Positions 25,337 through 55,673 of a stretch of 64,000 nucleotides of DNA are shown piece by piece (position 1 is the first letter of the stretch; every line of letters starts with the position of its first letter). The stretch is taken from the IMG/VR virus record IMGVR_UViG_3300032174_000075, positions 10,821-74,820 of that record. One strand, written 5' to 3'. Origin of the DNA: a virus. Made by a program: the position numbers and the translations under genes. Below the pieces are notes generated by a model. It was not told where the DNA came from, ran no database searches, and worked only from the letters and a program-made list of their open reading frames with translations.

Positions 25337-25698
25337 TGGCGCAGAACAACGCCGACTACAACGGAGTCCTGAGTTGTGTTCAGGACGACCGAGTCACGCC
25401 GATCTACCTGACGGCAGACGGAACGTCAGGCGGGACGCCGCTGCATCTTGAACTGTGGCTGCGCCAATCTCCGGGCGGCCCAGTCGTGGCGGAGTTTTCC
25501 ACGGTAGACAATACCCTTGTTATTCTTGAGCCTCCGAACGACAATCAAATATCCTGGCACATTCCGTTCACGACGATGCAGACACTCGCGGCAAATCTCT
25601 ATTACGGCGACGTGCTCGCGTTGGTGTCGGATACGTCTAGGCTTGGATACGGCTCGCTCTTGTTTCCAGTAGAGCAAGGATCGACGGAAATGGAGTAG
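25336..25698 (+). CDS. Tail-associated small protein
   Basis: TAATG coupling to the tailspike gene. Confidence 0.55.
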   Translation: MAQNNADYNGVLSCVQDDRVTPIYLTADGTSGGTPLHLELWLRQSPGGPVVAEFSTVDNTLVILEPPNDNQISWHIPFTTMQTLAANLYYGDVLALVSDTSRLGYGSLLFPVEQGSTEME

Positions 25699-25772: not shown

Positions 25773-26609
25773 TCAAAAATGCATCCTGTCGCTATCTATG
25801 GTGTCGATCATCCGCAAGCCGTCGGTGCCGGGTATTTCTTGGTCCAGCGAGATCGGCGCGAATAAAAATGGATGCATTCTCCGCACACGAGCCAGCGCCT
25901 TCGGAACAGCCGTCTTCATTTCACCGGGACGGAGTGAGCCCTCTAAGATCGCAAGGATGATGTCTTGGCAGACATCCGCTCGAATGAAGTGAGGGACCTG
26001 CGCCGGAACCATCCGATTGACCATTGCTAGAAGGCCAGTCGGGTCGTCGCGTTCGCTGTCCAAATATGGATAGCATTTTTCCCGCGTTGGCGTATGGCGA
26101 AGGTCGTTTTCGCGATTGACGAGCTTTCGCCTGTTCCTGATTACCGAGCACAACGACTTGCTTATCCCAAGGCGTTCGCATATCTCAGTTGGCCTGATGC
26201 CTTGATGGCTGAGCGCTATCACGGCCTTTGTTGTTTCGTTAAATTCCCGCGCGCTATATCGACGAATCTTTATGCCAGTGTCGGCCAAAATTCGCTTCAC
26301 TTTATCTATTGAAACCAAAAACTTCTCTCCGACCTTTTCAAGCGTCGCGCCAGACAGATATTCGGCGACAATTTCCGCCGTCGGAAACGTCGCCCTTTCT
26401 TGCTGATAGCGCTTCTTGATTAGATCGAAGCCATGGCGTTCTGTAACGCCGTTGCGAATGGCGACTTGGCGAATTGTCTCCCGCGAAAGCCCATATACAC
26501 TCGCTATTGACTGCAACGAATGCTCTCCGCTTTGTAACATCGCAATGATTTCGCAGTTCCTCGCGGTCCTGTCGGCACATGGGGGAGGCTTTTTGCGAGC
26601 GCCTGTCAC
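25773..26609 (-). CDS. Triple-HTH protein with C-terminal sigma-like domain
   Basis: Three HTH-like segments (SLQSIASVYGLSRETIRQ etc.), DVCQDIILAILEG and PISLDQEI. Confidence 0.7.
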   Translation of the reverse strand: MTGARKKPPPCADRTARNCEIIAMLQSGEHSLQSIASVYGLSRETIRQVAIRNGVTERHGFDLIKKRYQQERATFPTAEIVAEYLSGATLEKVGEKFLVSIDKVKRILADTGIKIRRYSAREFNETTKAVIALSHQGIRPTEICERLGISKSLCSVIRNRRKLVNRENDLRHTPTREKCYPYLDSERDDPTGLLAMVNRMVPAQVPHFIRADVCQDIILAILEGSLRPGEMKTAVPKALARVRRMHPFLFAPISLDQEIPGTDGLRMIDTIDSDRMHF

Positions 26610-26797
26610 TGCCTCTTCAACTCCTGTATCCTCTCCAGCGCCTCCATGAGGGCGATGATCTGGGGGGATGGTGAGCGTAATCCGGTTTCCATTTCTCGCA
26701 CTCGCTTGTTCGGGCTTTCGAGGCGGAGCTTTTCGCCGAACTGAGTCACGGATAGCCCGAGGCGGAGACGGAGCGCGCGGATTTCAAAAGGGGTCAT
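26606..26797 (-). CDS. XRE/HigA-like HTH protein
   Basis: MTPFEIRALR..LGLSV.QF....V..ME.G.R.P; ATGA-coupled on both sides. Confidence 0.75.
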   Translation of the reverse strand: MTPFEIRALRLRLGLSVTQFGEKLRLESPNKRVREMETGLRSPSPQIIALMEALERIQELKRQ

Positions 26798-28524
26798 TTG
26801 AATGCTGCCTCCGCTAAGGCCATGACCTTCTCCCGATAGGTTTTGGGCCGGCCTTCGTCAGTAGGCGGCAGAACAGTCATAAGCGTTGCTTTCTCTGCGT
26901 CAAAAACAATTCGCACATTTTTACCCCGCACTCGTATCCATCCCTCGAAAGCGTAGCCGTGATCATCGCCTTTGTGCGCCGACTTCACACCAGACACTCT
27001 TCCTTCTGAGACCGCCGCGCGCATCTCCCGGTTTACAGCCGTTGTCCATTTGATCCCATAGCGCTCTTCTAATCTGGCATGATTGTGCAACGTGCCATCG
27101 TCTAAATGCCGCAACTGTTTGGGGTCGAGATTCTGGAGAATTTCCTCGGCGTCAAAATAATCTACGTATTGATCATCTTTCATATGTAGACGGCGCTGTT
27201 CGTCGCGCACCTGATGATGGTAGACATCATCGACCTGTGATGGCGGATAGAAGCGGTGGTCAATCGCATCCCAAGCGCGCCGTTTCTCGTTCATCTGCTC
27301 GACGCGCCACTCATCTTGAGAAATCGACGCTTCAAGGCGGTCATATTCATCGCCGTCATTCTCGGCAGTTAATGACAGCGCGTGACCCGCTTGTTCAAAA
27401 TTTTCCCTATAGAACTTCGTCACAAACCAACGGACGTTTGTCTGCTTGGCCTTAAGTTCGGCTATCGTGACGCGTCCTTCTAGCATCGCCAGCATAATCT
27501 CTTGTACGATATCGGAGCGCATATGAGGCGGGATAGATTTTGGTATAAGAGAGTTCGCTTCCAAGAGATCGGCGTGCTCGTCACGAACCTTCGCGATATA
27601 TGGAAACTGTAGCAGTTCGGCGCCAGCATGATTGTGAAGGCGAAGGACCTTCTTGGGCTGCGGCAATATTTGCCGCCAAGTATATGACGGCTGAAAGCCC
27701 TTATCGAGAGCGTACCTCACGATTGATTGCGGAGAACGCCCAAGCGCATTTGCCGCTAATTCGACGTTCGCATTGTTCTCACAGAACCTTTCAAGCGCAG
27801 TCTTTTCGGATTGAGTCCACCAAGTTCGCGTACTCATCCAAGCGCCGCCGACGTAGCGGTTTTGCCCTATTTCGTAATTGTGCGCTCTGGCGTCTCGCTC
27901 TGCGAACATGAAAGAGCGAAGCTTTTTACGGGCTGTGCAAGAACTTTTCTTCCCATAGCCGACATGCGCCTCTAAAACTTTCCCCCACGATGATCCGTTA
28001 TTTACATCGTTGATCGCAACGATGGTCATAAGAACCTGCTTCCACGTCAGTTTTGTGGCGCGAAACGGCGTGCCTGATGTAAGTGAGTAACTGTACCCGC
28101 ATCTCTGGCACTTAAAGAGGTGCCTCCCCGTATCTCTCGTAATATGATAGCTCACCCCATGGGCGCACTCTGGGCATATCGGCTCTCCGTCGGTTTCTGG
28201 CCAACGAAGCTGTTTGAAAAGTTCGCGAGCCGCCCATTCCGAAAGAGGTTCAATCGCCTCTGGAGTGAGGGCCTTTGCGGCAGGGCTAGTCATGAAAGCG
28301 CTGCCGGAAGTGTAGCAAGAGCGGCATACTCCAATGCTGCCGGGAAACTTATTGGCCCCACATTTTTTGCACGTTGAATATGCTTCTTCTCGGTCCTCCT
28401 TAAGGAGATTTGCTGCGTCGCTTTCATTTGCCGCCAATATGGCGTTGTTCGATATAAACGCGCCGCCGTGTTCCTTGTAGAGCGGCTTACGGCCTTTGTT
28501 GTGTCGCGACCTACGCGTGCCCAT
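26794..28524 (-). CDS. Multidomain protein: IS1595-type Zn-ribbon/HTH, Myb-like HTH, sigma-2-like and RelE/RegB-like domains
   Basis: RWP...PICPEC..FKCQRC...SLTSGTPF..TKL; no DDE; DIVQEIMLAMLEG; HARLEERYG...IVFD....LMTVLP. Confidence 0.7.
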   Translation of the reverse strand: MGTRRSRHNKGRKPLYKEHGGAFISNNAILAANESDAANLLKEDREEAYSTCKKCGANKFPGSIGVCRSCYTSGSAFMTSPAAKALTPEAIEPLSEWAARELFKQLRWPETDGEPICPECAHGVSYHITRDTGRHLFKCQRCGYSYSLTSGTPFRATKLTWKQVLMTIVAINDVNNGSSWGKVLEAHVGYGKKSSCTARKKLRSFMFAERDARAHNYEIGQNRYVGGAWMSTRTWWTQSEKTALERFCENNANVELAANALGRSPQSIVRYALDKGFQPSYTWRQILPQPKKVLRLHNHAGAELLQFPYIAKVRDEHADLLEANSLIPKSIPPHMRSDIVQEIMLAMLEGRVTIAELKAKQTNVRWFVTKFYRENFEQAGHALSLTAENDGDEYDRLEASISQDEWRVEQMNEKRRAWDAIDHRFYPPSQVDDVYHHQVRDEQRRLHMKDDQYVDYFDAEEILQNLDPKQLRHLDDGTLHNHARLEERYGIKWTTAVNREMRAAVSEGRVSGVKSAHKGDDHGYAFEGWIRVRGKNVRIVFDAEKATLMTVLPPTDEGRPKTYREKVMALAEAAFK

Positions 28525-28690
28525 GGCGCCCTTCCTCCATGAGCGTCACGTTGTATTTCTCGGTCAGGTCTGAAATCCAGTCGCGCAGAAGATCGGCGCG
28601 CAGCACCCAATCGAGCGATTCCCAGTCGGCCGGAAACTGGACGGAACCTTCGCCATCCGCGAAACTTGCGAGCAATTTGGGCTTTGTCAT
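28511..28690 (-). CDS. 59-aa hypothetical protein (not in ORF track)
   Basis: GAGGAG RBS; MTKPKLLASF...LRADLLRDWISDL; overlaps next start. Confidence 0.6.
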   Translation of the reverse strand: MTKPKLLASFADGEGSVQFPADWESLDWVLRADLLRDWISDLTEKYNVTLMEEGRHGHA

Positions 28691-28749
28691 CTTCGACTCC
28701 TCGCCCTCGTTAGGGCTGTAGCGGCGCGGGTGGTGCGCCTATCGACGGC

Positions 28750-28800
28750 TAGGATTGAGCCACAGCCCCGTTGACAGGTCAAGGCTGAAAGCGCACATTT
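28750..28800. promoter_or_regulatory. Overlapping divergent sigma70-type promoters
   Basis: Near-palindrome TTGACAGGTCAA at 28771-28782; + strand TTGACA-N17-CACATT. Confidence 0.5.
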
Positions 28801-28805
28801 CCGCT

Positions 28806-29010
28806 CGGGAACGCCGCCGCTACAGCTAGGCGTGGCTTGGCCGGGAGAGACGGCTGTGTCGCTGCATCGGCGAGCCTTTGCCTTAACGGCAATCCTTCAC
28901 GGAGGGTTGAAGCCTATCGTAACAGACGGCTTGCGCAAAGGCTCACCGCTGCAACGATAATCGGAGACGGGCATGCGCGAGAAAACTTGCATCGGCGACG
29001 GCGGCTCTTC
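28806..29010 (+). ncRNA. Putative structured RNA/leader upstream of holin-like gene
   Basis: 25-bp stem 28857-28881/28935-28959, closing stem 28813-28819/28999-29005, several hairpins. Confidence 0.55.
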
Positions 29011-29059
29011 GTTCGTCGGCGCTGGCAACTCCGCCTAACCACCAAGGAGAACATCCCTC

Positions 29060-29386
29060 ATGGCCGCGCCCTCCGCTCCGGTTATCGTCGCCACGAAGTC
29101 AGCGTGGCTTTCAAAGACGAATTGGGTTGCTGGCCTGACAGGTCTTGGAGCGATCGTCACGCAGTTCACGCCACTATTGCCGCCAGAGTGGCAAGGGAAG
29201 GCGACGGCCTTTGTCGCGCTGCTTGGTGCGGTCGGGGTGTGGATCACAAGGACGTTTTTCACTACCAGTCTCACGCCATCATCTACGGCTGACCTTCCTT
29301 CCGCTGCCAATGCCATCCGAGCCTCTGGCGCATCCGAGGCGCAGGTTGTGGACGCCTTGAACGCCGCTCAGATTACCGCGAAATAG
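29060..29386 (+). CDS. Holin-like membrane protein
   Basis: AAGGAG RBS; WLSKTNW motif and two hydrophobic helices. Confidence 0.6.
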   Translation: MAAPSAPVIVATKSAWLSKTNWVAGLTGLGAIVTQFTPLLPPEWQGKATAFVALLGAVGVWITRTFFTTSLTPSSTADLPSAANAIRASGASEAQVVDALNAAQITAK

Positions 29387-38241: not shown

Positions 38242-39168
38242 TCATGCAGCCCGCTTCCGAATTGGGTCCTGATACATCAACCGTGCGCCTGCGCTAAGTG
38301 CAATCGCCTTCATGGTTCGCTCCGCGTCCGAACTCTTGCGCTCGTTCCAGCGATAGGAGAACTCGTTGCAGTAGCGGTGCAGGTGGGTCTTGCTGACGCT
38401 GTGGAATGAGCCGGTGATACCGCGCTTAAGCAGCGCGAAATAAGACTCCGCATCGTTTGTCGAGACGCCGTCGCGGGCATACTCGAACTTCGCATGATTG
38501 ACCGTCTCGTGGCCGCCCTCGAACCACTTGCCCACGCCACGATAAGAAATGAGCTGGTCGGTCTGGATTTGCGAAGACGGATGCACATTGTTGCGGATCG
38601 CGTCTTGCAACGTCTTGGCGGTGATATTCGCAATCGGCCAAGAGCGGACGCGCCCGCCACGCTCGACCAATGCGACGACGGGAGCCTTATCGGTCCCGCG
38701 ACCTTCCTTGGACTTCTTGCCGCTATGTTTGCGCGGCTTGCCGCCGACATAGGTTTCATCCGCGACCACGATGCCTTGAAGGAGCCCCTTCAATGGATTT
38801 TGCGCCATCGCGTGCCGGATGCGGTGGTTCAAGTGCCACGCGGTGCGATAGGAACCGAGGCCAAGCTGGCGCTGCAATTGAAGGGCGCTTACGCCTTTCT
38901 TTGAAGAACACATGATCGAGAAAGCCATGAGCCAAATCCTGATCGGAAGGTGCGAGGCTTCCATGATCGTGTTCACGGTGACGCTGAATTGCTGCGCGCA
39001 GCCATTGTTGCATTTCCAAACGCCGGGACGATGCTTCTTGCCCTTGAATTTTGTGTGGCCTTCGACGCAGCCGCAATGCGGACAAACCGGACCCTTCGGC
39101 CAGACGATGCCCTCTAGCGTTTCGCGGGCTTGATCTTCGGTCATTTTGGACAGTTCGGAGAGGTTCAT
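38242..39168 (-). CDS. IS1595-family (ISXO2-like) DDE transposase
   Basis: CPHCG Zn ribbon, VSALQLQRQLG HTH, DETYVGG / QTD / NDAESYF. Confidence 0.95.
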   Translation of the reverse strand: MNLSELSKMTEDQARETLEGIVWPKGPVCPHCGCVEGHTKFKGKKHRPGVWKCNNGCAQQFSVTVNTIMEASHLPIRIWLMAFSIMCSSKKGVSALQLQRQLGLGSYRTAWHLNHRIRHAMAQNPLKGLLQGIVVADETYVGGKPRKHSGKKSKEGRGTDKAPVVALVERGGRVRSWPIANITAKTLQDAIRNNVHPSSQIQTDQLISYRGVGKWFEGGHETVNHAKFEYARDGVSTNDAESYFALLKRGITGSFHSVSKTHLHRYCNEFSYRWNERKSSDAERTMKAIALSAGARLMYQDPIRKRAA

Positions 39169-39236
39169 CGGTTCGGCCCTTGATCGTGTATGCAGTATGT
39201 AATACATTCGAAGCCGTTGTCAAGCGGAGTGCATAC

Positions 39237-55241: not shown

Positions 55242-55673
55242 ATGGGCTGTAGTCGCGTTCATAATTGGAATGACGCTCGGATCGAAAAGCTCAAAGAGCT
55301 ATTCGCTGATGGCCTGTCGTTCTCGCAAATTGCTCGGGCTTTAGGTGGTGTCACGCGGAACGCATGCATCGGGAAAGTTAGACGCCTTGGCCTGGGTGGC
55401 GACAGAAAGAAGCCTGAGAGAGTTCGCCCGCGCGCAAACTTCGAGCCTGCCATGCAACCACGCCCGATCAAGCCTCGCATCATCGAAGGTATCGAGCCTG
55501 AATCTCTCAAACTCTCCATCACTGAGATATCCGACCGCACCTGCAAATGGCCCAGCGACGATTATCCCTATACCTATTGCGGTCACAAGCCTAAGCTCGG
55601 CTCGCCGTATTGCGAGTATCATTTCCAGAAATCGCGCTCGGTTCCGTATGGGCCAAGGGAGAAGACGGCGTGA
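55242..55673 (+). CDS. gcrA: GcrA-like transcriptional regulator
   Basis: W....IEKLK.L..DGLS.SQIA..LGGVTRNACIGK..RLGL; CKWP..CG....GSPYC..H. Confidence 0.9.
   Translation: MGCSRVHNWNDARIEKLKELFADGLSFSQIARALGGVTRNACIGKVRRLGLGGDRKKPERVRPRANFEPAMQPRPIKPRIIEGIEPESLKLSITEISDRTCKWPSDDYPYTYCGHKPKLGSPYCEYHFQKSRSVPYGPREKTA

Follow-up and report, generated by a model that had tools for sequence, protein, structure and literature searches.

A shared, possibly sigma-like module in two DNA-binding proteins of a reversed phage gene cassette

Two proteins encoded side by side in a contractile-tailed phage share a segment of about 100 residues that, as judged by sequence comparison, is a real, large and so far unnamed domain family of phage DNA-binding proteins. 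The window analyzed here is a stretch of 64,000 nucleotides (nt) corresponding to bases 10821-74820 of a 74.8 kb virus in IMG/VR (record IMGVR_UViG_3300032174_000075, rated 100% complete), and the two proteins belong to a cassette of four minus-strand open reading frames (ORFs) at 25773-28690. P0001 has 278 amino acids (aa) and lies at 25773-26609 on the minus strand; P0002, a multidomain protein of 576 aa, lies at 26794-28524 on the same strand, and the features within both are given below in window coordinates of that strand. We tentatively read these proteins as early phage transcription factors in which interchangeable DNA-binding modules are joined to a sigma-derived module that would dock on RNA polymerase.

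The paralogy of the two proteins is apparent from a single BLASTP comparison, in which aa 180-276 of P0001 align with aa 307-406 of P0002 at 29% identity (E 9e-10), a similarity that by this measure is far beyond chance. The original prediction had pointed to a paralogous segment here, which is borne out, and the motifs it quoted are present. In P0001 the module occupies aa 180-278 (25776-26072; delimited by BLASTP and an AlphaFold2 (AF2) model), running from YPY through IRADVCQDIILAILEG to a PISLDQEIPGTDGLRMIDTIDSDRMHF tail with which the protein ends. In P0002 it occupies aa 307-406 (27307-27606; BLASTP, profile and AF2), running from FPY through MRSDIVQEIMLAMLEG to an acidic LSLTAEN stretch. 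A two-sequence profile compared with 1.84 billion representatives retrieved 740 of them at E<=1e-3 and 197 at E<=1e-10, with the consensus YPYI..RDE.ADLLAVN.LVPRGLPE.MRADICQEIMLALLEG.VTLDELK..V..FIRKFYK.N.E..GAISLDAP..DDG; in two alignments, of 89 and 73 members, the D and the Q of RADICQ never vary. Cultured members are found in the Brevundimonas phages Delta and Leszy and in the Ochrobactrum phage POI1126. The module is not covered by any family of Pfam or NCBIfam or by a named PHROG, although phrog_24127 (unknown function; aa 163-278 of P0001) spans it. The isolated modules gave no match in Pfam, and searches of NCBIfam and PADLOC gave matches only at the level of helix-turn-helix (HTH) domains.

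What precedes the module differs from member to member. The variable N-terminal region has a median length of 124 aa, and 70 of the 161 family proteins end directly after the module. Pfam assigned a diverse set of domains to the 73 longer members, including Zn_ribbon_IS1595 (18), HNH (6), HTH_23 (6), Sigma70_r4_2 (3), GcrA (1) and others. The DNA-binding modules sit N-terminal to the shared module, and HNH domains are C-terminal to it in the members inspected. Two further claims of the original prediction thus held when the N-terminal regions were surveyed, namely that the DNA-binding modules are swappable and that the HTHs lie N-terminal, the reverse of the order in sigma factors; the latter is true of both P0001 and P0002 and of every confidently detected HTH resembling sigma region 4 (r4). 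Because the modules vary and the confidently detected r4-like HTHs are always N-terminal, domain shuffling and a permuted order are traits of the family.

Profile comparison provides the first indication of a relationship to sigma factors. With hhalign, the RADICQEIMLA segment was placed on DL[IV]QE of sigma region 2.2 in the same register with three target alignments (P 0.0084-0.025). The first gave P 0.011, and the second gave P of about 0.024, a score reached by 3 of 150 column shuffles. The third gave P 0.0084 over 75 co-linear columns, extending through region 2.4 into the linker of the extracytoplasmic function (ECF) sigmas, and 2 of 200 shuffles reached its score. Region 4, used as a negative control, gave P 0.31. 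These sigma alignments were shallow, consisting of six Escherichia coli sigmas and close RpoE orthologues; efforts to widen the set yielded only close RpoE orthologues from RpoE and FecI seeds and near-identical RpoD copies from a viral scan with region 2 of RpoD, RpoS and RpoH. In E. coli sigma-70, D403 and Q406 of region 2.2 are determinants of core binding. The acidic tail gives a second indication. Its profile alone, compared with a sigma alignment running from region 2 to the end, matched region 3.2 best (EPISMETPIGDDEDS of RpoD, HH P 0.021), with a score of 15.5 against a null of 8.8 +/- 1.7 that none of 100 column shuffles reached. The likeness of the PISLD tail to region 3.2 that had been proposed earlier is therefore supported, and it is suggestive only, because the stretch is short and compositionally acidic. 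Sigma region 3 was also tried as the counterpart of the core and set aside: the whole-module score against regions 3.0-3.2 was 17.9, and almost all of it came from the tail (15.5 alone).

The predicted fold of one of the two modules and a protein language model point weakly in the same direction. The AF2 model of the P0001 module (predicted local distance difference test score, pLDDT, 83.5) was searched against 48,161 chains with VIA-align, and sigma entries accounted for about 17 of the top 50 rows, most of them domain 2 structures. Among these are SigR (Z 5.3) and domain 2 of Taq sigma-A (Z 5.0), along with SigH, SigC, SigK, BldN, SigB and sigma-28. The sigma rows have Z 4.2-5.4, and most of them align over 59-72 residues at 2.8-4.6 A. 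In the AF2 model of P0002, the module has helices at aa 315-326, 333-348 and 354-378, and the SLT stretch is disordered. In the ESM-Atlas, 26 of the 30 named clusters nearest to the P0002 module carry Sigma70_r2 and the other four are named sigma-70 fragments (scores 0.91-0.93), and one such sigma cluster appears among the neighbors of the P0001 module. Foldseek, proposed with the original prediction as a check on the shared domain, found no significant match to the PDB for either model (none at E<=0.001, and none at E<2.8 for the P0001 module); sigma chains recur among the weak P0001 matches. The only match among viral models was one unnamed member of the family itself. The signals that point to sigma are individually weak and not fully independent, yet they agree with one another and place the two pieces in sigma order, the bundle and then the tail. 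On this evidence, sigma ancestry or mimicry of the module is moderately probable.

A number of observations weigh against this reading, and many of them also favor a module that is a helical effector domain of an ordinary kind with no relationship to sigma, which might serve in oligomerization or in ligand or partner binding and in which the D..QE and SLD resemblance would be convergence or chance. The sigma region 2 profile PF04542 (Sigma70_r2), a hidden Markov model (HMM), had no match in the proteins or the isolated modules at E<=10, nor in 162 family members (E<=0.001) or the six-frame translation of the phage genome (E<=10). The family profile found no sigma among PDB sequences, and phmmer and hmmsearch gave only HTH-level or chance matches. 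With hhalign the probabilities do not exceed 2-5%, and the register does not hold throughout: once the tail was left off, the core aligned with group 1-3 sigmas at P 0.4 in a different register. The proposed likeness of the DxxQE core to region 2.2 is weakly supported by a register that recurs at P of about 0.01; an HMM match and agreement with group 1-3 sigmas are missing. The fold matches of the P0001 module all have Z<=5.5, a range that helical bundles often exceed by chance. In the P0002 model, MLLE (Z 5.8) and PDCD5 rank above sigma, leaving only two sigma rows (SigR and AlgU, Z 4.0). The first helix of the module is much shorter than sigma region 2.1 in the AF2 models, and the tail is confidently predicted in the P0001 model, where it may pack on the bundle rather than form a free linker. 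The ESM-Atlas clusters share only 114-129 of 256 features, in the range of distant relatives or chance, and the Q of D..Q is replaced by S or N in the cultured relatives. Against an unrelated effector stand the region 2.2 register, the match of the tail to region 3.2, the enrichment of sigma domain 2 among the P0001 fold matches and the fact that the nearest named ESM clusters are all sigma, four weak and partly independent signals that concern two pieces arranged as in sigma. We regard a non-sigma effector as possible but rather doubtful. Membership of the sigma-70 family is in any case not established, since neither the HMM search nor the domain order agrees with it.

The genomic contexts of the relatives bear on when these proteins might act. 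Delta gp104, POI1126 gp58 and the genes of two uncultured phages each lie within a co-directional array of small early-type genes, with regulators, RecT-like, ParB-like or HNH genes as neighbors, and because of this setting the proteins would act early in infection. Scanning with a degenerate motif gave two matches in IMG/VR and none in 185,579 species genomes, where an alignment scan likewise found nothing; a scan of metagenomes gave two loci. The C-terminal ends of Delta gp104 (L096:5425-6249) and POI1126 gp58 (L097:5617-6276) keep the pattern S[LI]DA..GTD.L..D.I.S[DE]..HF, and from this sequence conservation it may be the tail that is critical for function in the subfamily of the cultured phages.

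A mechanism can be proposed for the favored reading of sigma-derived early transcription factors. On this reading, the cassette encodes two members of a family of DNA-binding proteins from alphaproteobacterial phages. The module would be an effector of about 100 residues, a small helical bundle with the pattern YPY..R.E..LL.VN.LVP..LP..[MI]RAD[IV]CQ[ED]I[MI]LA.LEG followed by a conserved acidic S-L-D-x-P tail, and would represent a diverged fragment, or possibly a mimic, of a sigma-70-family factor. The bundle would correspond to domain 2 (regions 2.1-2.2 onward) and dock on the beta-prime clamp helices of the host RNA polymerase, while the tail would correspond to region 3.2 or the ECF linker and act like the sigma finger. 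The DNA site or promoter would be chosen by the interchangeable N-terminal modules (r4-like HTHs, a Myb-like HTH or an IS1595 zinc ribbon), which would take the place of the C-terminal domain 4. The outcome might be redirection of the polymerase to phage promoters or, alternatively, competition with the host sigma, so that the proteins might be activators or inhibitors. A stronger version of this idea is that the proteins are true circularly re-ordered minimal sigmas, in which the bundle and the region-3.2-like finger bind core and open promoters and the N-terminal modules replace domain 4. We consider this unlikely; if it were true, they would be plug-and-play promoter-specificity subunits for alphaproteobacterial phages.

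Comparison with known systems helps to place the sigma-derived reading. The proteins resemble the sigma-70 family, and especially the ECF (group 4) sigmas, in having a predicted bundle with an acidic D-x-x-Q-E helix that may lie in the region 2.2 register, an acidic S-L-D-x-P stretch after the bundle that is suggestive of region 3.2 or the ECF linker, and region-4-type HTHs within the same protein. They differ in that the module has a short first helix and lacks a Sigma70_r2 HMM match, the DNA-binding modules are N-terminal and often not region-4-like (zinc ribbon, Myb-like), and many members end at the tail. Split or truncated sigmas are known, including T4 gp55/gp33, SPO1 gp33/gp34, Bacillus subtilis SigO-RsoA and Tn916 Sig7-8 (bioRxiv 10.64898/2026.10.01.756105). 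These too are proteins of phages or mobile elements that keep part of a sigma, and they show that a region 2 part without region 4 in the same chain is possible. There, however, a second subunit provides what the first one lacks, whereas the proteins of the present family carry a different DNA-binding module fused ahead of the putative sigma part. By analogy, the module proteins would work most like a putative partial sigma. A conceptual parallel is offered by RNA-guided transcription with dCas12f and sigmaE, in which another device for targeting DNA takes over -35 recognition from sigma while the domain 2 part of sigma engages the polymerase (bioRxiv 10.1101/2025.06.10.658880). The targeting device there is a separate RNA-guided protein bound to a complete ECF sigma; in the present proteins it would consist of protein modules covalently fused to a sigma fragment. 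A chain of an RNA-guided transcription complex (9n9q_C) is among the weak fold matches of the P0001 module.

The same weak likeness to sigma domain 2 could also mean that the module captures sigma-binding proteins rather than the polymerase, with GcrA as a candidate target. The phage encodes a GcrA homologue of its own at 55242-55673 on the plus strand (PF07750, E 3.5e-29, match span 55263-55631), a related uncultured phage encodes two, and GcrA is described as a cofactor of sigma-70 (PMC4647560). Capture of GcrA is nevertheless pure inference. Co-occurrence of GcrA with the family was looked at in three phages, in one of which, 62% complete, none was found, and we consider this possibility very improbable. 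GcrA is of interest as a comparison in its own right. The Caulobacter protein (PMC4647560) combines a small HTH at its N-terminus with a helical domain at its C-terminus, the latter working through the polymerase holoenzyme, again in an alphaproteobacterial setting; one family member has a Pfam GcrA match, and a true GcrA is encoded elsewhere in the phage. The difference is that GcrA binds sigma, whereas the present module resembles it, and the GcrA HMM found nothing in the cassette at E<=10, P0001 and P0002 included.

If the module docks on RNA polymerase, phages would possess a class of transcription factors that is widespread (740 sequence clusters, with cultured Brevundimonas and Ochrobactrum phages among them) and has not yet been named. 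Its members would join exchangeable DNA-binding modules to part of a sigma factor, in an order opposite to the canonical one. Such proteins would add to the partial sigmas already known (T4 gp55, RsoA, Tn916 Sig7-8) and would parallel dCas12f-sigmaE, and there would be a handle on the poorly understood control of middle and late genes in alphaproteobacterial phages. The cultured phages make the idea directly testable. Should the likeness to sigma prove spurious, the family would still be a new and large domain family of phage regulators.

The N-terminal modules of the two proteins are quite different. P0001, identified as an ORF with Pfam, PHROG and NCBIfam matches, begins at a GTG codon, a start supported by the homologue P0006, in which residues ahead of the alternative start codons are conserved. 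Ahead of its shared module are three HTH modules at about aa 17-49, 72-121 and 130-160 (26130-26561). Pfam assigns Sigma70_r4 (E 2e-8), HTH_23 (E 2e-9) and also HTH_7 to this array, a Cbp1-like multi-HTH match is found as well (E 4e-10), and an r4 HMM that we derived from E. coli sigmas matches all three HTHs.

P0002, defined by its ORF, Pfam matches and AF2 model, begins with a basic peptide of 19 aa, which is followed by an IS1595-type zinc ribbon and then a Myb-like HTH. The shared module comes next, and beyond it are long helices and, at the C-terminus, a domain of two helices and four strands. The basic peptide, MGTRRSRHNKGRKPLYKEH (aa 1-19; 28468-28524), was recognized by its conservation: about 45 of the 161 family representatives, otherwise 25-50% identical, carry it at their extreme N-terminus with 80-100% identity, and it is the best-conserved element of these proteins. 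Some small-terminase HTHs begin with GRPxxY, which serves as a minor-groove arm, and by analogy the peptide might be such an arm. The zinc ribbon (aa 95-144; 28093-28242; PF12760, E 9e-11) is of the type found in IS1595 transposases, and phrog_25593 spans aa 75-214. P0002 has the ribbon alone, with no DDE domain, and so is not a transposase. The phage does contain a complete gene for an IS1595-type transposase with both zinc ribbon and DDE domain, P0027, at 38242-39207 on the minus strand. Its N-terminus aligns with the zinc-ribbon region of P0002 at 26% identity (E 2e-6), and a recent copying of P0002 from this N-terminus was set aside on account of so low an identity. The Myb-like HTH (aa 215-300; 27625-27882; BLAST across the family) is the commonest module directly upstream of the shared domain, with BLAST matches in about 80 of the 161 representatives, and the A2 profile consensus of this region aligns to an HTH protein among the PDB sequences.

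The original prediction did not mention two further features of the cassette, the fold of the P0002 C-terminus and the nature of the gene between P0002 and P0001. The C-terminal domain (aa 477-557; 26854-27096) is predicted by AF2, with pLDDT of about 90, as helix-helix-four strands-helix, and by VIA-align it resembles the RelE/ParE superfamily. The matches include CdiA-CT (7m5f_C, Z 6.0), YafQ (4.9), RelE (4.8), MqsR (4.6) and BrnT (4.2), and about 18 of the 50 rows are RelE, YafQ, MqsR, BrnT, ParE, HigB2 or CdiA-CT toxins at Z 3.8-6.0, all below 8. No family in Pfam, NCBIfam or PADLOC matched aa 409-576 or 417-576. The next gene, P0003 (26606-26797, minus strand), encodes a 63-aa Xre-type HTH protein (Pfam HTH_3, E 4e-5; phrog_14076, transcriptional regulator) with a weak match to the HTH of the MqsA antitoxin (E 0.012); this small antitoxin-type gene directly adjoins P0002, overlapping its stop by 4 nt, and overlaps P0001 by 4 nt as well. 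As modeled, the domain and the Xre-type protein look like a putative toxin-antitoxin-like appendage. The arrangement is that of HigBA and MqsRA pairs, in that the gene with the RelE/ParE-like fold lies ahead of a small Xre-type HTH gene and overlaps it; in P0002, however, the toxin-like fold comes at the end of a much longer DNA-binding protein (576 aa) and has no sequence-family match.

These features raise the question of whether the cassette might be a selfish or accessory insert, such as a moron or an element of toxin-antitoxin-like or homing-nuclease-like type, in which the DNA-binding modules would direct a nuclease-type domain at the C-terminus to its target, the Xre protein would neutralize or repress it, and the module would be scaffolding. 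The toxin-first order agrees with this, as does the presence of HNH in place of the RelE/ParE-like domain in the relatives P0015 and P0019 and in 6 of the 73 long members. Another phage encodes a P0002-like protein with this architecture, and there too a small HTH gene comes next. The layout of the cassette is also suggestive. It lies reversed between plus-strand tail-fibre genes (ending at 25698) and plus-strand small genes (starting at 29060), and its GC content is 0.52 against 0.56-0.58 in the flanks. On the other side, 70 of the 161 family members stop after the module and carry no nuclease-type domain, and neither does P0001; the small partner in the other phage is of a different family from P0003; no PADLOC or toxin family is matched; the RelE-like Z is only 4-6; and the relatives reside in ordinary early-gene arrays on the strand of their neighbors. 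A selfish insert is, in our view, quite unlikely. In the uncultured phage G002, a Gp37/Gp68-family-like gene and a gene for an 836-aa ClpB-type-ATPase-like protein were noted by eye on the same strand downstream of a P0002-like gene and its HTH partner (L011:1055-2125 and L011:1933-4443).

The four ORFs of the cassette overlap successively by 14, 4 and 4 nt and are oriented opposite to the tail and lysis genes, in agreement with the earlier description of four overlapping genes antisense to the late operon. Sheath, baseplate and fibre genes are encoded in the phage, and genes for RecT and an exonuclease lie further along it on the minus strand. The cassette thus shares the orientation of the recombination genes, with plus-strand genes downstream of it separating the two. 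Between 26001 and 28000 the AT skew is strongly negative and the GC content is 0.52, relative to 0.56-0.58 in the flanking late genes. The low GC and the AT skew of the cassette are as expected from later acquisition. No DNA-level similarity of the cassette to known phages was found, and no relatives were found of a flanking 120-aa gene that could have served as an insertion test.

The first gene of the cassette (28511-28690, minus strand) overlaps P0002 by 14 nt and encodes an acidic protein of 59 aa for which no homologue or family was found, Pfam, PHROG, NCBIfam and PADLOC all being without a match. Upstream of it is a divergent non-coding region of 369 nt (28691-29059), in which no sigma-70-type consensus promoter was found; nor was any consensus promoter or terminator found flanking the cassette. 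This region holds a perfect inverted pair of 12 nt, GCTGTAGCGGCG at 28715-28726 and CGCCGCTACAGC at 28815-28826. With at most one mismatch, the element occurs five times in the window where 0.5 copies are expected, and from its sequence the pair is a candidate operator for one of the HTH proteins of the cassette.

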